Below are positions 2,480 to 12,617 of a stretch of 39,926 bases of DNA, piece by piece. The position numbers and the translations under genes were made by a program. Positions within the stretch are counted from its first letter, which is position 1. Every line of letters begins with the position of its first letter. This DNA is from an uncultured Candidatus Saccharibacteria bacterium (GTDB lineage: Bacteria; Patescibacteriota; Minisyncoccia; Phycocordibacterales; UBA1006). The notes under the pieces were generated by a model. That model searched no databases. It saw only the letters and a list, made by a program, of their open reading frames with translations, and was not told where the DNA came from. Location of the stretch: assembly GCA_964620085.1 (NCBI GenBank), contig CAZUIQ010000006.1, forward strand, positions 1 to 39,926. The letters run 5' to 3'.

Positions 2480-2887
2480 CTAACGTTTACTCCACTGAGA
2501 ACTCTTTCGAGCCTTCTTGTGTCCGAACTTACGTCGTTCCTTAGAACGCGCATCTCGTTTCAAGAATCCAAGTTTTTTCACTTCAGTCTTTACAGACTCA
2601 TCAGTCTGAGAAAGAGCTCGAGCGATTCCATGGCGAATTGCTTCAGCTTGAGAATGAGTCCCACCTCCCTTTACTACTACAGTAATGGTGTAGTTCTTAG
2701 CATCCTTAAGTTTGAACAATGCCTCCATTGCAACCTTCACGAGATCCTTGGTTGGAAAGTATGCGTCTGCTGGCTTGTCGTTGATAACGAGTGAATTCTT
2801 AGCTGCTTCCGTAATACGAATACGAGCCGAAGATGTTTTTCGACGACCAGTAGCAGCTATATAATTTTGAGATTTTGTAGCTGTCAT
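2480..2887 (-). CDS. rpsI: 30S ribosomal protein S9
   Basis: GGG.H.QA.AIRHGIARAL and a C-terminal basic tail ending SKR. Confidence 0.95.
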   Translation of the reverse strand: MTATKSQNYIAATGRRKTSSARIRITEAAKNSLVINDKPADAYFPTKDLVKVAMEALFKLKDAKNYTITVVVKGGGTHSQAEAIRHGIARALSQTDESVKTEVKKLGFLKRDARSKERRKFGHKKARKSSQWSKR

Positions 2888-2888
2888 A

Positions 2889-3230
2889 TTAGTCGTTGAT
2901 GATTAAGTTCTTAAGCATATCTGTTCGAAGTTTATTTCGAGGAAGCATTCCACGAATCGTTCGCATCAGCACTTCTCGAATACCACGACGATCTTTTAAG
3001 TGTCCTCGTGTTTCAATTTTCTGACCACCTGGATATCCAGAATAGGTCTGAAGCTCTTCGTTTAATCGTCGTTCTGAGAGGTCTAGTTTCGAAGCATTTT
3101 CGATCGTAACTTTTACATCAGAAATTTTATTGGGTGCAAAACCCGTATCCATCTTCCCTCGCAAGTAACTTGCGGCGAGACTGGTGACACGGCCAAGCTT
3201 TTTCCCTGTTGCATCAATAGTGAATTCCAT
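2889..3230 (-). CDS. rplM: 50S ribosomal protein L13 (short form, 113 aa)
   Basis: DATGKKLGRVTS.AA..LRGK and IRGMLPRNKL motifs; directly upstream of rpsI as in the conserved rplM-rpsI operon. Confidence 0.9.
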   Translation of the reverse strand: MEFTIDATGKKLGRVTSLAASYLRGKMDTGFAPNKISDVKVTIENASKLDLSERRLNEELQTYSGYPGGQKIETRGHLKDRRGIREVLMRTIRGMLPRNKLRTDMLKNLIIND

Positions 3231-3260
3231 AATTTAATAATTAGATAATAATTTCGGTGT

Positions 3261-3302
3261 CCCTCTCCACGATAGTGGAGAGGGTGGCATTGCGTAGCAA
3301 TG
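3261..3302 (-). other. two GC-rich hairpins between rplQ and rplM
   Basis: CCCTCTCCAC-GATA-GTGGAGAGGG (perfect 10 bp) and CATTGC-GTA-GCAATG. Confidence 0.6.
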
Positions 3303-3312
3303 ACGGGTGAGG

Positions 3313-3669
3313 TTATACGAACTCGATAATCGCCATTTCACTTCCATCTGAAAGACGATTTGGCAATTTCATGATTCGTAGATACCCTCCCTTTCGGTCG
3401 GTATATTTCGGAGCGTAGTCCTTGATCAGTACTTGTGCAACATCGAGTTGCCCCCCCATTTCTGCGGTGAGCAATCGAATTGCAGCAAGATCAGATCCAG
3501 ACTTGGCACGGGTTACCATCTTTTCAACCATAGGTCGAATTTCCTTGGCACGAGGAAGCGTTGTTTGAATACGTCCGTGAAGTACGAGCGCTCGCACAAG
3601 ACTTCTCAAGAATCCCTTGCGAACTTTTCGTTCGCGTCCGAATTTTCGTTTGTTGTCGTGATGTCTCAT
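3313..3669 (-). CDS. rplQ: 50S ribosomal protein L17
   Basis: MRH..NKRKFGRE...R..LRSL N-terminus and GGY.RI.KL..R.SDG C-terminus. Confidence 0.95.
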   Translation of the reverse strand: MRHHDNKRKFGRERKVRKGFLRSLVRALVLHGRIQTTLPRAKEIRPMVEKMVTRAKSGSDLAAIRLLTAEMGGQLDVAQVLIKDYAPKYTDRKGGYLRIMKLPNRLSDGSEMAIIEFV

Positions 3670-3696
3670 AATAATTTGATTAATCTCTAAATAAGT

Positions 3697-4674
3697 TTAC
3701 TTTTTGAGTGCGAGACCATAATTGGTAAGCACGTCCTTTACTTCATTTAATCCTTTGTCCCCAAATCCATCAAGCTCGAGAAGTCCTTCCTCGGTTTTTT
3801 GGATAAGACCACCCACCGTTCGGATACCTGCATCTGAAAGTGCGTTGAGAGTTCGTGTTGAAAGCTGAAGTGAATCAATTCGTGTTTTCAAAACCTCAGT
3901 AAGATCCTCCTTGTCCATAGACTCATCATCTTTGACAGTTCCTGTTGTTACAGATACCGGCATTTCAACATGAGTTTTTGCAATTTCCTTGAGATCAAGA
4001 ATCGCTCGAAACTGTTCAAGCATGATTTTCATCGCATCCTCGAGAGCCACCTTTGGTTCGATAGAACCATCAGTTTCAATAACAAGACGAAGTCGATTGT
4101 AGTTCGTTCGATCTCCAACACGCATATCTTCAACATCATAACTACATCCTACGATAGGAGAGAATCGGGCATCCGTCATAATCGTTCCGATGTCTACCTT
4201 CTCTTTTGAAAGCATTTCTCGAGAAACAAATCCTAATCCCTTTTCAACAACTACTTCGATGTTGAGCTCTGCACCCTTTCCTGTAACTTCACCAATATAT
4301 TGATCTGGTGTGGTTACAACCAATTGTCCAGATGTTTGAAAATCAGAAGCTTTTACGACACCACTTTTTACAGAGAGTGTTGCGGTTGCTGACTCATCAC
4401 CGGTCAATTGAAAGCGAACTTTTTTCAAATTAAGAATCATAGTGATAACATCTTCTCGAACACCTTCAAGTGTTGAGAACTCATGCTCAACTCCTTTGAT
4501 CTTTACTTGAGTAATCGCAGCACCAGGAACCGATGAAAGAATGATTCTTCGCAATGAGTTTCCAAGTGTATGACCATACCCTGGGTAAAGTCCTTCGATT
4601 TCATATACTCCTTGTGTGGAATCTTCTGAAACAGTTTTTAGTTTTGAAGGCAAGACAATTGATAGTGACATCAT
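3697..4674 (-). CDS. rpoA: DNA-directed RNA polymerase subunit alpha
   Basis: GHTLGNSLRRIILSSVPGAAI in the N-terminal domain; LQLSTRTLNALSDAGIRTVGGLI in the C-terminal domain. Confidence 0.95.
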   Translation of the reverse strand: MMSLSIVLPSKLKTVSEDSTQGVYEIEGLYPGYGHTLGNSLRRIILSSVPGAAITQVKIKGVEHEFSTLEGVREDVITMILNLKKVRFQLTGDESATATLSVKSGVVKASDFQTSGQLVVTTPDQYIGEVTGKGAELNIEVVVEKGLGFVSREMLSKEKVDIGTIMTDARFSPIVGCSYDVEDMRVGDRTNYNRLRLVIETDGSIEPKVALEDAMKIMLEQFRAILDLKEIAKTHVEMPVSVTTGTVKDDESMDKEDLTEVLKTRIDSLQLSTRTLNALSDAGIRTVGGLIQKTEEGLLELDGFGDKGLNEVKDVLTNYGLALKK

Positions 4675-4765
4675 AATGATTGGTGTAAGTTATGAGCGAA
4701 TAAAATGAATAAAGAACACTGAGTTTTGGGATATATCCCACGCCGCCCTACGGGCTATGCGGGAC

Positions 4766-5368
4766 CTATCGGCTGTAGAACTCGATTACTACCTGGAAAT
4801 TCAAGAACGGATCTGGATTTTTAGGCTCTCCTGAGATTTTTGCAGTAACTGCTGAATCATCGTAGGTAAACCAATCAGGTTTTTTAATCGCTTTCAATTT
4901 TGTTGCAACATCAGTAAAGAGCTTTGTGGTCTTACTTCCTTCGCGAATTGCGATTACATCATTCTGCTTGAGAGCATATGATGGGATAGTAAGTTTCTTA
5001 CTATTTACGGTGAAGTGTCCGTGAGATACCATCTGTCGCGCAAGCGCTCGAGTATTGGCAAATCCAAGACGATATACGGCGTTATCAAGTCGTTCCTCAA
5101 GCTGTTTGAACAAAAGGTCTGCAGGTGTGGTTCCTTTTTTACCATGCTCCATGGCATAGGTAACATAGTTAGAAAATTGCTTTTCTCGAACTCCGTACAT
5201 AAAACGAACTTTTTGTTTTTCAATCAACTGATTTCCGAAGTCTGAACGTCGTCCCCCTTTCTTACCTTTCTTGGTAACAGGTTCTGACTGTGCAAATTTT
5301 GCGGTCTGACATTTTTCATAGATACCGGCACCAAGGCGTCGGCACAATTTATATTTTTTCTGTGTCAT
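4766..5368 (-). CDS. rpsD: 30S ribosomal protein S4
   Basis: RLDNAVYRLGFANTRALARQMVSHGHFTVN (S4 RNA-binding domain); operon position. Confidence 0.95.
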   Translation of the reverse strand: MTQKKYKLCRRLGAGIYEKCQTAKFAQSEPVTKKGKKGGRRSDFGNQLIEKQKVRFMYGVREKQFSNYVTYAMEHGKKGTTPADLLFKQLEERLDNAVYRLGFANTRALARQMVSHGHFTVNSKKLTIPSYALKQNDVIAIREGSKTTKLFTDVATKLKAIKKPDWFTYDDSAVTAKISGEPKNPDPFLNFQVVIEFYSR

Positions 5369-5382
5369 ATATATTTATGTGA

Positions 5383-5817
5383 TTATACTCGTCGAGCCTT
5401 CTTAGGTCGTGGACCATTAAAAGGCACTGGTGTGCGATCCTTGATTGATACAATATCAATTCCCTTTGCAGAGAATGATCGGATTGCTGATTCTCGACCA
5501 GAACCTACACCTCGAACAACAACATGAACCTCTTTCAGTCCAATCATTTGAGCTTTTTCAGCAAGTACTTCACCGATCTTTGCCGCAGCAAAAGGTGTTC
5601 CCTTTTTAGCCCCTTTGAAACCAAGAGCTCCTGAAGAAGATGACATCACGGCATTTCCATCCATATCTGTGAGTAATGCCTTTGTGTTATTAAAAGTTGA
5701 TTGCACGTGCAAAATTCCCACCACTAATTTTTTCTTTGGTGTACGAGAAACAGCCCGATCGCGGAGACTCTTGTCAACCCTTTGTCCTTCTGTTTTTACA
5801 ATTCGTTTTTTTCCCAT
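5383..5817 (-). CDS. rpsK: 30S ribosomal protein S11
   Basis: GFKGAKKGTPFAA ... VRGVGSGRESAIR ... I.D.TP.P.NG.RP.K.RR. Confidence 0.95.
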   Translation of the reverse strand: MGKKRIVKTEGQRVDKSLRDRAVSRTPKKKLVVGILHVQSTFNNTKALLTDMDGNAVMSSSSGALGFKGAKKGTPFAAAKIGEVLAEKAQMIGLKEVHVVVRGVGSGRESAIRSFSAKGIDIVSIKDRTPVPFNGPRPKKARRV

Positions 5818-5832
5818 ATGTTTAGAAGTTAA

Positions 5833-6216
5833 TTAGGTCTTAGATTCTTTCTTACGACCAGATCCCATGGTGAGACGCTTGTTTCCTCGAACCGTTCGAG
5901 AATTCGTCTTGGTACGTTGACCTCGACTAGGAAGGTTGCGTGAGTGACGCGTTCCTCGGTAACTACCGATATCTTTTAATCGTTTGATGTTTTGACCAAT
6001 TTCACGAGTAAGATTTCCTTCAAGTTTCATAGTTTCAACAATCTTACGGATTGCTGCCTCTTCGTCTGAAGTCAAATCTTTGATCTTTTTCTTTGGATCA
6101 ACAGATGCTTGTTGAGCAATAGAAAGTCCCGCTGGAATACCGATGCCGTAAATAGCAGCTGCAAGTCCGTACTGAACATTTTTATTTTCTGGTAATGTAA
6201 TTCCTAGAAGTCGCAT
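5833..6216 (-). CDS. rpsM: 30S ribosomal protein S13
   Basis: IGSYRGTRHSRNLPSRGQRTKTNSRT motif. Confidence 0.95.
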   Translation of the reverse strand: MRLLGITLPENKNVQYGLAAAIYGIGIPAGLSIAQQASVDPKKKIKDLTSDEEAAIRKIVETMKLEGNLTREIGQNIKRLKDIGSYRGTRHSRNLPSRGQRTKTNSRTVRGNKRLTMGSGRKKESKT

Positions 6217-6234
6217 ATAATGTGAATACTAAAA

Positions 6235-6351
6235 TTAACCCTGTCGAGCTTTATGTCGAGGATTTTTTTTGTTAATGCGATACAAACGACCTTTTCGTCG
6301 AACGATTTTGTCATCCGGACTAATTTTTTTGATTGATGATCGAATTTTCAT
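6235..6351 (-). CDS. rpmJ: 50S ribosomal protein L36 (cysteine-free type)
   Basis: Not in the ORF track. My translation is [38 protein letters not shown] (38 aa). It sits between infA and rpsM as expected. Confidence 0.85.
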
Positions 6352-6439
6352 GATCGGTATCTATATTTGCTAATAAACGCTTACTACTAATATTTTGCCT
6401 TACGGCCAGAATAGCTGGTCAAAAAATAACAAGAGAGAT

Positions 6440-6655
6440 TTACGCTCTCTTCACAATTCTTCCTTTACCTCCATAGGGTTCAAGGAGCACATGAACCGTG
6501 TCACCAATCAATACTTTGATACGATGAAGTTTCATTTTGCCAGAAAGGTACGCAACTTGTACGTTACCATCTTGAAATCGCACCCGAAACATTGCGTTTG
6601 GGAGCGCTTCGAGGACTTCTGCTGTTACGATTAATTTATCGTCTGTTTGTACCAT
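6440..6655 (-). CDS. infA: translation initiation factor IF-1
   Basis: LPNAMFRV...GKM....I.VL.GD.V.V...PY....GRIV.R. The ATG at 6655 is preferred over the TTG at 6679 because the predicted promoter -10 (6670-6675) lies inside the longer ORF. Confidence 0.9.
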   Translation of the reverse strand: MVQTDDKLIVTAEVLEALPNAMFRVRFQDGNVQVAYLSGKMKLHRIKVLIGDTVHVLLEPYGGKGRIVKRA

Positions 6656-6669
6656 GTGCAGTAATTTGA

Positions 6670-6698
6670 ATCTTAGCAAATATATAAAACAATGTCAA
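6670..6698 (-). promoter_or_regulatory. infA-operon promoter TTGACA-17-TAAGAT
   Basis: -35 at 6693-6698, -10 at 6670-6675, 14 nt before the infA ATG. Confidence 0.55.
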
Positions 6699-6709
6699 CC
6701 AATTATAAC

Positions 6710-6718
6710 TTATCCACA
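6710..6718 (+). promoter_or_regulatory. perfect DnaA-box consensus TTATCCACA
   Basis: Exact 9-mer 11 nt upstream of the infA -35 box. Confidence 0.4.
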
Positions 6719-6792
6719 GAAAAACGTCTTATATTACAATGGTTTTAAAAGTTGAACAAGTTTTATTTTTAAGTCAATAGGTAAAATTAGAA

Positions 6793-8058
6793 TTATAATG
6801 CTACAACTTCTAGTTGATGAGGGTTTCTAGGAAGAATCCGTCTCCAGAACGGTTGTACCTGTAGCTTGTAAGTAGCTATTTCTGGAATTTGATCCATAGA
6901 AGATCTTGCTTCTTTTCGAGAAATGCCCAAAATTGCCTCCTTTATCTTCTGCGTATCCAGAAGACCAACCACCGTACCTGTTCCGGTAATACGTATTTGA
7001 ATTTTCTGTGGAATAGGCTGACCTGCGACTATGGCACTTGTCAGAATTGACAGATCCTCAAAGTTTTTTAGAGTAAGCTTTATATTCTTTTCCACACCAA
7101 GACTATCACCTATGATTCGGGCTATTTCTGAACGATGTACTAATAAGATAGTGACCGTCTGATTTGCGATGACATGTACCCCATCTTCATGTTTAGGATC
7201 AAGTACTATGGTTACAGGATTTTCTGGAAGCGTCAGAGGTAGTGCAATCATGGTATCTGGAACTTGCTCAGAAAGTCGTGCAATGAGGGTTTCTGTACGT
7301 GAAAACTCATTTTTCAAATCTTCAGCAGCTCTCGTAATCATCTCCGGATCAGCAATTGCATCTAAATCATCAGACCCTCCTGTTATTTCTGTCACAGAAC
7401 GAATGGTAACCCCTTCAAGTGTTTTTGAGGTCTTTGAAAAAGTAAAATCATCTAAAGCACTATTTCCATAGATACCCGCATCTTTGGCAATTACCCCAAC
7501 ATCTATTTGTCCGGGATCTTTCAAACCTTTTGGTGGGATGGTAACTGTTTTTGAGATAAGATATTTTTTACCAGCACTTGAGATGATTTCTGTTTTTGCA
7601 GAGATAGTTTTTGCACTCGTATGAGTATTATATAATCTCACGGTACCCGATGCCTGCGCTTCACTTGGGGCGCGACCTGTGATAGGAATAACTTTTTCAC
7701 TCGTAAATGTTTTTGTTGCGGTTGCAAAAAATACCCCATCCGTATTTCGAGATTGCGTTAACGTATACATTTTATCTACGGTACCCGAAAACTGTTTTGG
7801 TGTAACTGCCACCTTGGTATACGTAAATAGTCCACCTATACCCATACCGAGCGCAGTGATACAAATCATAGCAATAATCCACAGGAAACACCCTGAACGA
7901 TTTCGTACAGGGTTTTCATAACTTTTAAAGACCACAGGATCTTCCTGTTCTGATACTGGCTGTATTTCAAATTTTTGAGGTACTTCTAAAACCTGTTTTT
8001 TTACAACAGTTTTTTTCGTCACAATCATGTCATTCATCATGTGTTTTTTATCAGGCAT
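6793..8058 (-). CDS. hypothetical single-pass membrane protein (421 aa)
   Basis: Short cytoplasmic N-terminus, one hydrophobic helix (FLWIIAMICITALGMGIGGLF), then a large Thr/Ser/Ile-rich domain; 10 nt downstream of the preceding gene. Confidence 0.6.
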   Translation of the reverse strand: MPDKKHMMNDMIVTKKTVVKKQVLEVPQKFEIQPVSEQEDPVVFKSYENPVRNRSGCFLWIIAMICITALGMGIGGLFTYTKVAVTPKQFSGTVDKMYTLTQSRNTDGVFFATATKTFTSEKVIPITGRAPSEAQASGTVRLYNTHTSAKTISAKTEIISSAGKKYLISKTVTIPPKGLKDPGQIDVGVIAKDAGIYGNSALDDFTFSKTSKTLEGVTIRSVTEITGGSDDLDAIADPEMITRAAEDLKNEFSRTETLIARLSEQVPDTMIALPLTLPENPVTIVLDPKHEDGVHVIANQTVTILLVHRSEIARIIGDSLGVEKNIKLTLKNFEDLSILTSAIVAGQPIPQKIQIRITGTGTVVGLLDTQKIKEAILGISRKEARSSMDQIPEIATYKLQVQPFWRRILPRNPHQLEVVAL

Positions 8059-8068
8059 AAGAAGTTAT

Positions 8069-9208
8069 CTATTCAAGTCCTGCCAAGATTGCAAGTGATA
8101 GTGAGCTATTTTTTACTCGTGCCGTATGGGTATAGATCAGGAATTCGTCAAACATTTCTGTCTGAATAACTTCTATTTCCTTATTGATATCAACCTCAAT
8201 CATAGGCTTCAAGGCTTTTGCCCATACAGGATCCATTATGAGTATTACTGGCCCTGAAATATGCCCCATCTGTTTTTTAATACGAAGCATGATCATACGA
8301 ATTTCATCACTCATTTTTTTATAAGCCATCTCGATTCTTTGATAATAAATATCTCGCTCGTGTTCTAAGAAATTTTCATCACTTGCAAAGCGCATTACTG
8401 ACGCACTATGTCTCTGATCTACCCCAAACAGACGTGCGATGGCATTCTCAAACATGGCAAGACCTGTGTTTATTTTTTCTGAATAACTCATTAATCCTCG
8501 ATTGAACACTAAGCATGTTCCCGATACTCCCCCAAGAGTAATCACCGTGATTTGATTATACTCTTTTGCTATTCGTGAAAACGCCGTGTCTAATCCACTA
8601 AAAGAAACATCTACCCTATGGAACACATCGGCATATACTCCTAGTATCATTTCAACAAATGCCGCCGGGGCTAATGCAACCGTGGTATGAAGTAGGAACG
8701 ATTTAGCAGAAATACCCACAGGATTCTTAACCATATACCCATTGGCCTCAACGATAGGTTTCGTAGTGTGCATAATTCCCCACATTTCATCACGAGCATA
8801 ATCACGAAGAGCCTCTTGTTCAAAGAGTCGTGCATCACGAACCATGGCATCATCAATTATTTTTTGGGTGATTTTGAAAGGACTTGTTTTCTCTATGGTG
8901 ATATGACGTGATTTATTCACGAGCCAAGGCTCACCCATCACACATACTAACTTGTCGTAATTTCCATGAACCTTGCGACATTGTTCGAGTACTTTTTTTA
9001 CTTCATGCTCAACAAGACTCTCAAGGGATGCTTCTGTAGTACGGTGATGCATAATTTTTTCCTCACACGAAAATATAACCACCGGCTTTGTCACGGCACC
9101 TTCACGATGATACGTTCGCACCACCGAAGCAGTAATTGAATAACTATTCACCATGAGCACACACATGGTTTGTTCTTCTTTGGGCTTGTTTTTGAGAAAA
9201 GAAAACAT
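8069..9208 (-). CDS. putative actin-fold ATPase (FtsA/PilM-like), function uncertain
   Basis: The pattern ..ANGYMVKNPVGISA.. / ..VITLGGVSGTCLVF.. resembles FtsA/PilM phosphate- and adenosine-binding segments. The start is moved to the ATG at 9208 because a TATAAT (9215-9220) lies 6 nt upstream of it; the track start at 9226 is GTG. Confidence 0.35.
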   Translation of the reverse strand: MFSFLKNKPKEEQTMCVLMVNSYSITASVVRTYHREGAVTKPVVIFSCEEKIMHHRTTEASLESLVEHEVKKVLEQCRKVHGNYDKLVCVMGEPWLVNKSRHITIEKTSPFKITQKIIDDAMVRDARLFEQEALRDYARDEMWGIMHTTKPIVEANGYMVKNPVGISAKSFLLHTTVALAPAAFVEMILGVYADVFHRVDVSFSGLDTAFSRIAKEYNQITVITLGGVSGTCLVFNRGLMSYSEKINTGLAMFENAIARLFGVDQRHSASVMRFASDENFLEHERDIYYQRIEMAYKKMSDEIRMIMLRIKKQMGHISGPVILIMDPVWAKALKPMIEVDINKEIEVIQTEMFDEFLIYTHTARVKNSSLSLAILAGLE

Positions 9209-9260
9209 GTGCTCATTATAGAACACATGGTTTCTTTATTCAATCCATCCTCATCCGGCT

Positions 9261-11483
9261 CTATCCAATCATTGCTTTTATGCGACGCACCCCAGCGCTA
9301 CTCGCCTCTTCTTTTTGAATCTTGAATGTTCCAATTTCAGAAGTATTCGTCACATGGGGACCACCACAGAATTCGATGCTTATAGCATCGCCCTGAGCGA
9401 GTGAGCTTTGCGAACGAGTCGAAGGAGCAATTTCATATACACTCACAATATCAGGATATTTCGCACCGAATTCCATCTCTGCACCCAGCTTTTCGGCTTC
9501 CTCGCGAGGCATTTCTCGTCGCACGACAGGAAGCTTTGCTTCTATCCAAGTATTTACTAAAGCTTCTACTTGTTGTAATTCTTCTGCGGTTACTTTGCGA
9601 TCGAAACTAAAGTCCATACGGAGGCGTTCTTCCGTGATATTGCTTCCTCGTTGGTGAATATTTTTATCAACGACTTCTTGTAATGCTGCGAGTAACAAAT
9701 GATGTGCCGTGTGTAACTTCACGGTTGTTTCATTGGTATTTGCAAGACCTCCTTTGAATTTTTGTTCTGAACCTGAACGAGATGCTTCTTGGTGTCTTTC
9801 CATTAAAATCTTAAATGCTCCCATCACTGCATTTTCTGAGAAAGGAATTTTCTTTTCTTTAGCCAGCTCAATTGAAAGCTCTGGAGGAAAACCGTGTGTG
9901 GTCCATAGATCAAAAACGTTTTGTCCGTTAAGCTCTAATACAATTTTCTCGCCAGAATCAAGATTTTTCACAGAAGTCTTCATATCAAAAACTCTTAATC
10001 CTTGGTGTAGTGTTTTTTGAAATTGTTCAATTTCATGAAAGATTACACTGTATCCCATCTTTTTGACTTCAAGAATTTCTGGGTAAGCCCCTCCATAAGA
10101 TTCAATCAGCCGATCAAATATTATTTTATAATTCTCTAACGATGAAGAGATTATTTTTTGAAAATAAACAACTCCGCGACGTGTTAGACGACGCATCACA
10201 TACCCCCTATCTTTATTACTAGGAACGACACCATCTGACGCCATGAAAATTACAGTTCTAAAGTGATCCAGTGTAATTCTCTCAGCTTTTTGTTTTTCAA
10301 AATCACTTCCAGAAAACTGTAGACTTTCTATTCGTATAGCATCGCGGACTGCTTTAAATAAATCAGTATCATAAGCAGTATTTTTTCCTTGCATCACCGC
10401 AGTAAGACGCTCTAGTCCCGCACCAGTGTCCACATTCTTCTGAGAAAGATTTTTATATACAAAAAGTCTTGATTTTAACCAATCAATAAGAGTCGGATCT
10501 GTTGATACTTTTACCGCATGAAGTCCAACATCTTTGGCACAACTAGTATGTTGCTCATTACAATCAAAATAAATGCACTTACTAAGATCAACCCCAAGCT
10601 TCATTGAAAGTGAATTGAAAAAATCTGGATTATCTTTTTTGAGACCAGTCTCTTGCTCAAATACTTCTATAGTAAAATCTTTTAGTATCTCCTTTGCTTT
10701 TTCATGATTTCCGTTTACTACCAATATCTTTCTATTTTTAGTTTTCTCGAGAAAATTAACCAGTTCTTGATTTAGATTAAATTGATCATCATAGAGACTT
10801 CCCATTCCATCAATCAAAATAACTGCTGGGCTTTTCTCATACTCCATAAACACATCATTCCAGATTTCAATAAATGTTTCCTTTTTTACCTGCTCAACAA
10901 AAGACTCCTTCGAAATTTCTTGTCCAATAAAATCACCATTCATGTCATAAAACATTTCTGAACACGGACCACACGGACCATTATCTCCCGGACTCCACCA
11001 GTTATCATCCGCACCCAATGGATAAATTCTATGTTCAGGAATCCCAAGATTCATCCAAATATCTTTTGATTCTTGATCGAATGGAGCATTTGCATCACCT
11101 TCGAAAATAGTCACGGCAAGTCGCGCAGGATCAAGCCCTAACCCCTCTTCTTCACTTGTTAAGAATTCATAGCTCCAAGAAATCGCTTCTTGTTTAAAAT
11201 AATCTCCAAGAGACCAATTTCCCAACATTTCAAAAAACGAAAAGTGTCGATTATCACCAATATCATCAAGGTCCCCTGTTCGTACACATTTCTGACAACT
11301 TGCCAATTTAGTCCCAAGTGGATGCTTCTGTCCCATCAAATACGGAACCAGTGGCTGCATGCCGGCCGTATTAAAAAGCACCGAAGGGTCATTTTCGGGT
11401 ACCAAGCTTGCTGATGGTAAAATAGCATGACCTCGCTTCTTGAAAAATTCCAAGAATCTACTGCGAATTTCTGATGACAACAT
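9261..11483 (-). CDS. alaS: alanine--tRNA ligase with an inserted HAD-like module and no C-Ala domain
   Basis: Class II AlaRS motifs FNTAGMQP, CQKCVRTGD, HFSFFEMLGNWSLGDYFK and DTGAGLERL; editing-domain motifs HTAHHLL and CGGPHV. The protein ends right after the editing domain. Confidence 0.93.
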   Translation of the reverse strand: MLSSEIRSRFLEFFKKRGHAILPSASLVPENDPSVLFNTAGMQPLVPYLMGQKHPLGTKLASCQKCVRTGDLDDIGDNRHFSFFEMLGNWSLGDYFKQEAISWSYEFLTSEEEGLGLDPARLAVTIFEGDANAPFDQESKDIWMNLGIPEHRIYPLGADDNWWSPGDNGPCGPCSEMFYDMNGDFIGQEISKESFVEQVKKETFIEIWNDVFMEYEKSPAVILIDGMGSLYDDQFNLNQELVNFLEKTKNRKILVVNGNHEKAKEILKDFTIEVFEQETGLKKDNPDFFNSLSMKLGVDLSKCIYFDCNEQHTSCAKDVGLHAVKVSTDPTLIDWLKSRLFVYKNLSQKNVDTGAGLERLTAVMQGKNTAYDTDLFKAVRDAIRIESLQFSGSDFEKQKAERITLDHFRTVIFMASDGVVPSNKDRGYVMRRLTRRGVVYFQKIISSSLENYKIIFDRLIESYGGAYPEILEVKKMGYSVIFHEIEQFQKTLHQGLRVFDMKTSVKNLDSGEKIVLELNGQNVFDLWTTHGFPPELSIELAKEKKIPFSENAVMGAFKILMERHQEASRSGSEQKFKGGLANTNETTVKLHTAHHLLLAALQEVVDKNIHQRGSNITEERLRMDFSFDRKVTAEELQQVEALVNTWIEAKLPVVRREMPREEAEKLGAEMEFGAKYPDIVSVYEIAPSTRSQSSLAQGDAISIEFCGGPHVTNTSEIGTFKIQKEEASSAGVRRIKAMIG

Positions 11484-11578: not shown

Positions 11579-11905
11579 CTATGGAGTTAAAGAAATTGGA
11601 ACGTAGGTCCATCCTGAGTCGCATGCCTTGATGAGGTCACTCCTTTCGTTAATATACAAGTAACAAATCCCTTCATTTCTTTCAATAACCTGCTTGATTA
11701 TGTCACTTGAAAAAGTGTGACTCATTTTGATAACCTCAGGATGTTTTTCTACACGATAATCATCGTCTATAATTAACTGAAGTAGTCCCTCATACCTTAC
11801 AATCTTATAATCAGCTACATATTCTAACGGAATGATTGCATGGCAGCTTTTTGGTTCCTGTAAAAAAACCATCTGTGCTTTTACCTTTTTTAACTTGTTG
11901 TTCAT
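11579..11905 (-). CDS. hypothetical protein (108 aa), paralog of the N-terminal half of the 12024-12617 product
   Basis: Shared blocks AIIPLE/VIIPID and SSDIIKQVIERNEGICYLY/SSEDYQKILDNNGICYIQ; has its own terminator (11528-11560). Confidence 0.55.
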   Translation of the reverse strand: MNNKLKKVKAQMVFLQEPKSCHAIIPLEYVADYKIVRYEGLLQLIIDDDYRVEKHPEVIKMSHTFSSDIIKQVIERNEGICYLYINERSDLIKACDSGWTYVPISLTP

Positions 11906-12023: not shown

Positions 12024-12617
12024 TTAAAGCACTTCGCAATATTGCCAAACATACCCCTTTGGTAACCAATAATCCTTGATGTAATTTCCACTTCTTACAA
12101 TCTCTCTAAATTGCAAACAGTGATCTACGTTACCGAATTCATCCATCACCGCAAATTTTTTTTCTGAATTTTCCTCTGCGGGAAACTGATTAAAACTAAA
12201 CCAGCCTCCTTCTTTACTTACTACAAGCCTTATTGCTTCTGGCGATTCAAGATGAATAATAACCTTGCAGTCATGGAGGCCTCGTTGGGAATAAATCGTT
12301 CCCTGTTGATCATCACATTGAATGTAACAAATCCCATTATTATCAAGTATCTTTTGATAATCTTCAGAAGATAGATCATCCACGGAATGACCTTCATTTC
12401 CTAAAGCATCCAGCCCTTGGTACTCTTTGTAAACACAGAAAGAAGATATTGGCTTGCCTTCTATTTTCGTTCCAATTTTTAAAATTTCCAAAGAAATTGC
12501 TTGACTACTATCTTCTACAAAAACATCCGGAAAAAGTGGATCTATTGGAATAATAACCATACTTTCTGTTCCGGGTAATTTGACTAGAAATGCTTTTCTA
12601 CTGTGTGGATATTTCAT
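12024..12617 (-). CDS. hypothetical protein (197 aa)
   Basis: ATG ORF with its own terminator (11976-12006); N-terminal half is homologous to the neighbouring 108-aa ORF. Confidence 0.55.
   Translation of the reverse strand: MKYPHSRKAFLVKLPGTESMVIIPIDPLFPDVFVEDSSQAISLEILKIGTKIEGKPISSFCVYKEYQGLDALGNEGHSVDDLSSEDYQKILDNNGICYIQCDDQQGTIYSQRGLHDCKVIIHLESPEAIRLVVSKEGGWFSFNQFPAEENSEKKFAVMDEFGNVDHCLQFREIVRSGNYIKDYWLPKGYVWQYCEVL

Follow-up and report, generated by a model that had tools for sequence, protein, structure and literature searches.

A capless HAD-fold domain nested in the catalytic core of a small-type alanyl-tRNA synthetase from an uncultured Candidatus Saccharibacteria bacterium

The alaS gene at positions 9261 to 11483 (minus strand) of the window, by which we mean the whole 39,926-nucleotide stretch of contig CAZUIQ010000006.1 that was analysed (assembly GCA_964620085.1, an uncultured Candidatus Saccharibacteria bacterium), codes for a 740-residue small-type alanine--tRNA ligase (AlaRS) in which a segment of 128 residues lies between two strands of the catalytic domain. 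This raises the question what this segment is, where it came from and what it does in a synthetase. A preliminary description of the locus read it as a degenerate haloacid dehalogenase (HAD) fold domain placed between the WNxVFM strand and the DTGxGLER motif, and the evidence from profiles, family and fold upholds this reading. The explanation that we favour, with a probability of about 0.6 for the reading as a whole, is that a capless HAD domain was gained laterally by a small-type AlaRS and that it has a non-catalytic accessory role there.

In an alignment of 11 close AlaRS, the ten close relatives read at this site WNDVFMEYEK, then KDGxVIGK and then LSQKNVDTGAGLER, whereas in the window protein the same WNDVFMEYEK and LSQKNVDTGAGLER flank 128 residues (residues 218-345, positions 10449 to 10832, minus strand) that stand in place of the 8-residue hairpin tip. 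The insert had earlier been placed at positions 10455 to 10832, and while its presence there is upheld its extent is not, the alignment giving 6 more nucleotides at the 3' end. When the protein was aligned to solved AlaRS, query residues 1-218 corresponded to chain residues 1-211 and query residues 348-572 to chain residues 221-429, and 129 query residues occupied the position of 9 chain residues. At the DNA level, 24 nucleotides of the syntenic orthologue in L009 (GCA_964817425.1), of the type AGGATGGTGTTGTCATTGGAAAA and coding for KDGVVIGK, are exchanged in the window for 384 nucleotides with identical sequence on either side; both junctions are in-frame and the native sequence picks up again exactly. 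When the window DNA was compared to that of L009, neither terminal repeats nor a target-site duplication was found at the insert, and the insert region matched no Rfam family above threshold, the only match being a chance sub-threshold one to a snoRNA. The insert is anchored 9 residues past N209 and 7 residues ahead of D352, which we take to be the active-site Asn and Asp by analogy with N212 and D235 of E. coli AlaRS. Within the insert there is also a 16-nucleotide direct repeat (positions 10561-10576 and 10811-10826, 94% identical) that codes for AVILID and CIYFDC; it probably reflects the repeated beta-strand-Asp pattern by coincidence rather than a mobile-element end.

The first part of the question is what the insert is. 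Against the NCBIfam model TIGR01509 (HAD-IA variant 3) it scored 34.4-36.6 bits, which is above the curated cut-off of 29.4, whereas with the Pfam models PF00702 and PF13419 it scored 13-16 bits (E=0.02-0.1), which is under their gathering thresholds of 26.4 and 23.8, respectively. An AlphaFold2 (AF2) model of the insert alone, made from a 27-sequence family alignment, had a predicted local distance difference test score (pLDDT) of 93.4 and a predicted TM-score (pTM) of 0.88 and showed a repeating beta-alpha pattern. When this fold was compared with the PDB by Foldseek (E<=1e-3), all matches listed were of the HAD superfamily with query-normalised TM-scores of 0.50-0.75, and these included the capless 2pr7, the core domain in 2mu1, YihX, MDP-1, HisB-N and the phosphatase domain of soluble epoxide hydrolase. 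The Rossmannoid alpha/beta core of the HAD superfamily is found in the insert by both AF2 and Foldseek and, as modelled, the insert is a whole capless (C0-type) HAD-fold domain. A weak calcineurin-like metallophosphoesterase signal was also seen on the insert (Pfam E=0.01-0.1 and matches to PdeM) and it is explained by the window-specific VVNGNHEK, where the family reads VVNGFREK. Since GNHEK is specific to the window and no metallophosphoesterase structure was among the Foldseek matches, this candidate was ruled out.

When the insert alone was used in a word-index search there were no matches, and an exhaustive search was required. With phmmer against 1.84 billion representatives (E<=1e-3) the insert gave 60 matches, the best with E=2.8e-16 over its residues 4-122, and the nearest of these were either free proteins of about 127 residues that matched from end to end (P0121 and P0123, 37-43% identity) or the same module within other proteins. 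A family profile built from 27 members matched at least 2,151 clusters (E<=1e-5), of which the best 120 were all stand-alone proteins of 127-148 residues, and several of the matches, from Patescibacteria, Nanoarchaeota and Woesearchaeota, carry the name 'HAD-IA family hydrolase'. By these similarities the insert is a member of a family of capless HAD proteins of about 127 residues, here called mini-HAD, whose named members among the best matches come from Patescibacteria and DPANN archaea, and the nearest named HAD-IA relatives of which are nucleotidases and sugar phosphatases. A second mini-HAD copy was searched for in the window and none was found. In 148 members of the family Asp8, Lys66, His91 and Ala99 (insert numbering) were invariant and Lys35, Phe58, Ser/Thr59, Leu60 and Tyr88 were near-invariant. 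When the profile was aligned to solved HAD-IA-v3 enzymes, Lys66 fell on the Lys of motif III and YF(D/E)H fell on the 'DD/ED' motif IV (FIDD/FED). The family pattern is one in which the nucleophile Asp, the Lys and one acid are kept, a hydrophobic residue stands at Asp+2, and His replaces the second metal ligand. The motif-II position is Thr in 100% of the main family and Thr also in the group named DAx, and it is Val in 100% of the AlaRS-type subgroup named DGM. The Gly-Met that follows the nucleophile Asp is specific to this DGM subgroup and the Asp itself is invariant in all four family groups.

In the window copy the motif I region is VILIDGMGS (positions 10797 to 10823, minus strand, as are all features of the insert given here). 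The nucleophile Asp had been described as replaced in AVILIDGMGSLYD and this is wrong, as D225 is kept and is invariant in 148 of 148 members, and the replaced residue is Asp+2, which is Met227. This assignment of motif I is made from the family alignment and from the strand position in the model; the HMM alignments to HAD models begin past motif I. For KILVVNGN, which had been taken as motif II, the position is right but the Thr/Ser is not there, Val256 (positions 10716 to 10718) being found instead. Motif III stands as described, with Lys283 of LKKDNPDFF (positions 10635 to 10637) kept, family-invariant and aligned with the Lys of RKPNPDIF in HAD-IA-v3 structures. Motif IV, YFDC (positions 10560 to 10571), which aligns to FIDD/FED of HAD-IA, is degenerate as described, but its first acid, D307, is kept and it is the second position, Cys308 in place of the family-invariant His, that is changed. 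Thus the window copy keeps D225, K283, D307 and the family Ala99, and its changes compared to the family are C308 for His, E276 for Ser/Thr, Q277 for Leu, H312 for Asn and V326 for Tyr. Of the six canonical HAD residues it is without three, namely Asp+2, the Thr/Ser of motif II and the second acid of motif IV, so that of the superfamily hallmarks the DxD of motif I, the Thr/Ser of motif II and the two-acid motif IV are not found and the Lys of motif III is.

When the insert is compared to the HAD-IA-v3 (TIGR01509) and C0 HADs (2pr7, MDP-1), it is alike in the Rossmannoid core, the nucleophile Asp at the end of beta1, the motif-III Lys and the first motif-IV acid. It differs in that it is capless, has only about 120 residues and is nested within another enzyme, as well as in its Met at Asp+2, its Val for the motif-II Thr/Ser and its Cys for the second motif-IV acid. 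With the free 'HAD-IA family hydrolase' proteins of about 127 residues (for example P0121, P0123, P0195 and P0200) it is collinear over residues 4-122 at 30-43% identity and shares the D, K and A invariants and the signature ILVDGM / KILVVNG / KKDNP / YFD; unlike these, the window copy is embedded, has an extra C-terminal linker, LFVYKN, and no longer has the invariant His or several of the near-invariant residues. By descent the window copy belongs to the family; its active-site face has diverged, and the family-invariant residues that are gone suggest that constraint on this former active-site face has been relaxed or altered. Because three of six canonical HAD residues and the family His are absent, phosphatase activity is unlikely and the window insert is probably not a working HAD phosphatase.

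A survey of alaS genes showed that the window gene is not alone. When GTDB genomes and JGI/ENA metagenomes were scanned with the DGM-subgroup alignment, nine more AlaRS genes proved to carry the module at the identical site (L001-L003, L011-L013, L018, L019 and L022), and thus the insert recurs at this site in at least nine other AlaRS genes, L001-L003 being metagenome-assembled genomes labelled Micrarchaeota or Woesearchaeota. Seven of the nine are complete over the insert and have 133-135 residues from FMxY to Q(K/Q)NVDTG; for the eight complete insert-bearing AlaRS the span at this site is 132-135 residues. At their C-terminal end the embedded copies have a short aromatic linker (for example NLVYFKP, and LFVYKN in the window) that is absent from the free forms. 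The insert nearest to that of the window, at 43% identity, is that of L011, which adjoins an mnmA-like gene. In L003 and L012, the only moderately close insert-bearing pair, the insert is 76% identical with a dN/dS of about 0.12, the N-terminal catalytic core (N-core) is 83% identical with a ratio of 0.06, and the downstream segment has a ratio of 0.17, these ratios being approximate as dS is near saturation. In distant insert-bearing pairs the identity of the insert follows that of the host (57% versus 59-62%, and 50% versus 55-72%). Because dN/dS is low and insert identity tracks host identity, these comparisons argue that in the L003/L012 clade the module is a constrained part of the enzyme and not decaying junk.

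The insert also stands out in base composition. In 8 of 8 insert-bearing alaS genes (those of the window, L001, L002, L003, L011, L012, L013 and L018) the GC content at third codon positions (GC3) of the insert is 10-25 points under that of the rest of the gene, examples being 0.20 versus 0.31, 0.48 versus 0.68 and 0.18 versus 0.44, and the free mini-HAD genes have a GC content in line with their own low-GC genomes. Recent entry of foreign DNA is insufficient as an explanation of the low GC, since the contrast persists in L003 and L012, which have co-diverged with a dS of more than 1.

The second part of the question is how the module came to be in the window gene. None of the other listed relatives (119 of 119, with 578-630 residues) has an insert, and at the orthologous loci of L009 and L010 alaS is uninterrupted. 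The gene order common to L009, L010 and the window is mnmA, DUF1402, mgtC, [DUF1761], pepF, alaS, two unknowns, infA, rpsM, rpsK, rpsD and rpoA. The N-core of the window protein is 95% identical to that of the insert-less P0002 and only 51-58% identical to those of the nine insert-bearing AlaRS. These insert-less syntenic loci, together with the native flanks and an N-core that is near to P0002 and far from the insert-bearing AlaRS, are the reason why we conclude that the window lineage gained the module laterally. Loss of the insert in the relatives was ruled out, as the relatives share the conserved 8-residue hairpin. The most likely route would be that the donor was an alaS allele already bearing the insert and that recombination took place in the conserved flanks, such an allele being the most economical donor because the site and the linker are shared.

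The host enzyme has the features of a complete small-type AlaRS. The protein scored 629 bits against NCBIfam NF002436, an AlaRS equivalog of about 595 residues (cut-off 529), and 550 bits against TIGR00344 (cut-off 457), and in a Pfam scan tRNA-synt_2c (PF01411) was split into two stretches and was accompanied by tRNA_SAD (PF07973); synteny with the insert-less orthologues of L009 and L010 supports the same assignment. The N-terminal part of the catalytic domain (residues 1-217, positions 10833 to 11483, all on the minus strand) ends in the strand WNDVFMEYEK. Motif 3 (NVDTGAGLER) and the helical tRNA-recognition domain (residues 346-572) occupy positions 9768 to 10448. The editing domain occupies positions 9264 to 9767, with HTAHH at 9699-9713, CGGPH at 9354-9368, PF07973 at residues 681-735, and the stop directly behind. 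WND, DTGAGLER, HTAHH and CGGPH are intact in the window protein and invariant in the alignment of 11 close AlaRS. The window protein thus has the equivalog score, the class II motifs and the editing HxxxH and CxxxH of the small AlaRS and, like these, no C-Ala domain. The absence of C-Ala had been pointed out at the outset and holds, the open reading frame (ORF) stopping 5 residues past the tRNA_SAD match, and it is usual among the small AlaRS, a type already on record, and not special to the window gene, because all 119 of the 119 listed relatives are annotated with catalytic PF01411 and editing PF07973 only. Small AlaRS without C-Ala have been described for CPR, DPANN and Asgard (bioRxiv 10.1101/2023.05.29.542759) and are covered by an NCBIfam model of their own. 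The window host has the same domains and the same backbone of about 600 residues as these and as NF002436 proteins, and differs by the 128-residue domain inside the catalytic core, no such insert being mentioned in the searched passages of that paper. That the insert is an extra tRNA-binding surface which makes up for C-Ala is unsupported by its charge (pI 5.6, with a family mean of 5.2), and the net charge of the module (pI about 5-6) gives no hint of RNA binding.

Two other observations concern the tRNA-recognition domain of this protein. Its middle part (residues about 365-565, window positions 9789-10391) is a second divergent block of alaS: it has 12-60% identity to relatives that in their N- and C-terminal parts reach 88-100%, and it is closest to that of the otherwise distant, insert-less P0024 (61%) and 29-36% identical to those of the insert-bearing AlaRS. 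Between the HAD insert and this block lie about 20 native codons (residues 346-365, 86% DNA identity to L009), and since the block is thus separate from the insert alaS looks mosaic or recombinant. That the insert and the divergent middle domain arrived together in a single recombination tract was ruled out, as residues 346-365 are native and the middle domain is nearest to an insert-less protein. At residues about 500-520 (window about 9924-9986) there is also a small lineage-variable insertion, TSVKNLDSGEKIVLELNG, which among the aligned relatives only P0071 and P0117 share.

The third part of the question is what the module does in the enzyme. The module is joined in-frame at the tip of the surface beta-hairpin that leads from the WNxVFM strand to the motif-3 strand (VDTGxGLER). 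The protein would probably still charge and proofread tRNA-Ala, and the HAD module would stand out from the catalytic domain as a side domain that folds on its own. The role that we favour is that of a non-catalytic or non-canonical accessory, which may be a ligand-binding, partner-binding or structural appendage. Several points weigh against this explanation. The change of His to Cys308 could preserve metal binding and hence an altered activity is conceivable. In the embedded copies of the other clade, purifying selection and the conserved D, K, H and Y suggest an activity or a binding site over a passive spacer, and since the window copy is without a close relative the dN/dS evidence is confined to those copies. 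Prediction confirmed the HAD fold for the insert alone, but the model of the full-length protein (11-sequence alignment) had a pLDDT of 64 and a pTM of 0.47, which is too poor to place the module with respect to the active site or the tRNA. The donor is also unsampled, 43% being the best identity, and as an alternative to the transfer of an insert-bearing allele a free gene may have been inserted independently at the same permissive loop.

A module that is tied to translation by an activity of its own is a serious rival to the lateral gain of a non-catalytic accessory, though on balance we consider it doubtful. The module would then act in cis, as an accessory enzyme or a phospho-acceptor switch that was recruited repeatedly as a help to aminoacylation, either acting on AMP, PPi or the aminoacyl-adenylate or forming a long-lived aspartyl-phosphate that reports energy status. 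This is a serious rival because the module recurs in other translation proteins and because one free copy lies between rplO and secY. In the ValRS P0128 and P0129 it is found together with GNAT, in the LeuRS P0138 together with NUDIX and Ham1/ITPase, and in an archaeal uL22 (P0132) it is at the N-terminus, all these copies being of the DAx type; the ValRS, LeuRS and uL22 examples are from metagenomic protein collections, and in both synthetases the module is shortly behind the SRQ(R/L)xWG motif. With at least 10 AlaRS genes the family is thus embedded in three synthetases and fused to a ribosomal protein, and the purifying selection on embedded copies, the invariance of D, K and H over 148 members, and the nucleotidases and sugar phosphatases that are its nearest named HAD-IA relatives are what a translation-linked activity would lead one to expect. 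Loss of Asp+2 also occurs in HAD members with a persistent phospho-aspartate, the P-type ATPases, and it counts on the same side. However, the AlaRS-type subgroup is without three of the six canonical catalytic residues and the window copy is without the invariant His as well, most free copies are in unrelated and variable neighbourhoods, and thousands of related AlaRS function without the module.

As for the free copies themselves, the one between rplO and secY is in a Patescibacteria contig (L007, positions 2703-9868), where it is part of an island of small-enzyme genes wedged inside the ribosomal-protein operon, the other genes of which are GNAT, abhydrolase, glyoxalase, cyclase, APH and NTP-transferase. 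At two DPANN loci (L008, positions 4526-5384, and L014, positions 884-1835) a free mini-HAD adjoins a NUDIX gene, the neighbour in L014 being presumably such a gene as recognised from its sequence only. A more distant, cap-containing HAD match of the same search, P0153, is a CYTH-HAD fusion.

It is improbable, though it accounts for several of the observations, that the module is a selfish, non-splicing in-frame passenger, that is, a small CPR/DPANN gene which spreads among alleles of essential genes and is retained because nothing but a precise deletion would take it out and leave the host alive. Its occurrence is sporadic (1 of the 120 best-listed Paceibacteria-type AlaRS), it is at the identical site in AlaRS that are only 51-58% identical in the N-core, its GC3 is lower than that of the rest of the gene in all eight genes, and family-invariant residues have been lost in the window copy. 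Other aminoacyl-tRNA synthetases (aaRS) of the same metagenomic collections hold whole-enzyme inserts, GNAT, NUDIX and Ham1, and an NCBIfam model 'ileS_w_GNAT' exists. Like an intein, the window insert is in-frame, sporadic, at a conserved site of an essential gene and lower in GC than its host, but it is without a Hint fold, splicing residues or a homing endonuclease and is predicted to be retained in the mature protein. An intein as such was ruled out: the junctions are EK|SPAV and VYKN|LSQ (in other copies FKP|L, FTP|L and YLS|A), there is no Hint or intein match in Pfam, and the fold is that of a HAD. The same features tell against a passenger, since the C-terminal junction is KN|L and not HN|C/S/T and the Asn is absent from other copies, no endonuclease, transposase, terminal repeats or target duplication was found, and there is no Rfam intron match. 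The dN/dS of 0.12 and the co-divergence with the host in L003/L012 indicate constraint at the protein level and not neutral hitch-hiking. Finally, an assembly chimera or mis-join that brought 384 nucleotides foreign to alaS is very improbable. In its favour are that the exact insert sequence is known from a single contig, that the word-based search found no close copy of it and that its GC is in the lowest 1.4% of 384-nucleotide windows. Against it, both junctions are in-frame and pass exactly into native sequence, 9 independent assemblies from NCBI, ENA and JGI projects share this architecture at the same residue positions, and the insert folds confidently as a complete domain.

The neighbourhood of alaS in the window has features of its own. 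Between pepF and alaS there are two ORFs, of 108 residues (positions 11579-11905) and 197 residues (positions 12024-12617), both on the minus strand, neither of which has a Pfam or PHROG match. Both are missing from the syntenic L009 and a helix-turn-helix (HTH) gene is there instead in L010, and therefore the place beside alaS is a variable slot. Downstream of alaS an ORF of 421 residues (positions 6793-8058, minus strand) occupies the same place in L009 and L010. Pfam gives no match for it, and its weak PHROG match to a baseplate wedge subunit (E=1.3e-5) is probably due to a shared repeat or fold rather than to a phage gene.

Folded non-synthetase domains on aaRS are known, such as the eukaryotic WHEP, GST and EMAPII domains and the GNAT of IleRS (ileS_w_GNAT, NF040702), and in IleRS-GNAT and in the ValRS P0128 and P0129 the extra domain is, as here, of an enzyme type. 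The window protein differs from these in that its guest has a HAD fold and is sited in the hairpin that joins two active-site strands. Literature searches turned up no account of a HAD domain inserted in AlaRS; small AlaRS and synthetases that bear enzyme domains were already known. AlaRS has repeatedly been presented as the single synthetase to retain its prototype architecture, and has been described as having "never recruited a new domain" and as having no insertion peptide in its active-site domain (PMC10036535). The alaS of the window and at least nine others contradict this statement, as in these a whole domain of a predicted enzyme fold is nested between two active-site strands. They are also a natural case in which an enzyme tolerates a domain insertion at a distance of about 8 residues from catalytic ones, and this is of use in synthetase engineering.

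The recurrence of the module in ValRS, LeuRS and uL22 may mean that a very common orphan family of CPR and DPANN is linked to translation, or alternatively it may reveal an undescribed route by which small genes lodge in-frame in essential genes. That the translation apparatus of CPR/DPANN has in the mini-HAD a common module that can be transferred, occurring in AlaRS, ValRS, LeuRS and uL22 and in free form, is a broader idea that we regard as a long shot. If it is true, self-association of the modules or a common ligand would tether synthetases together or to the ribosome, like the multi-synthetase complex of eukaryotes, or else the module would be a phospho-aspartate switch on aminoacylation, and in that case it would have spread among alleles of essential genes across the boundary between bacteria and archaea via recombination at conserved flanks.

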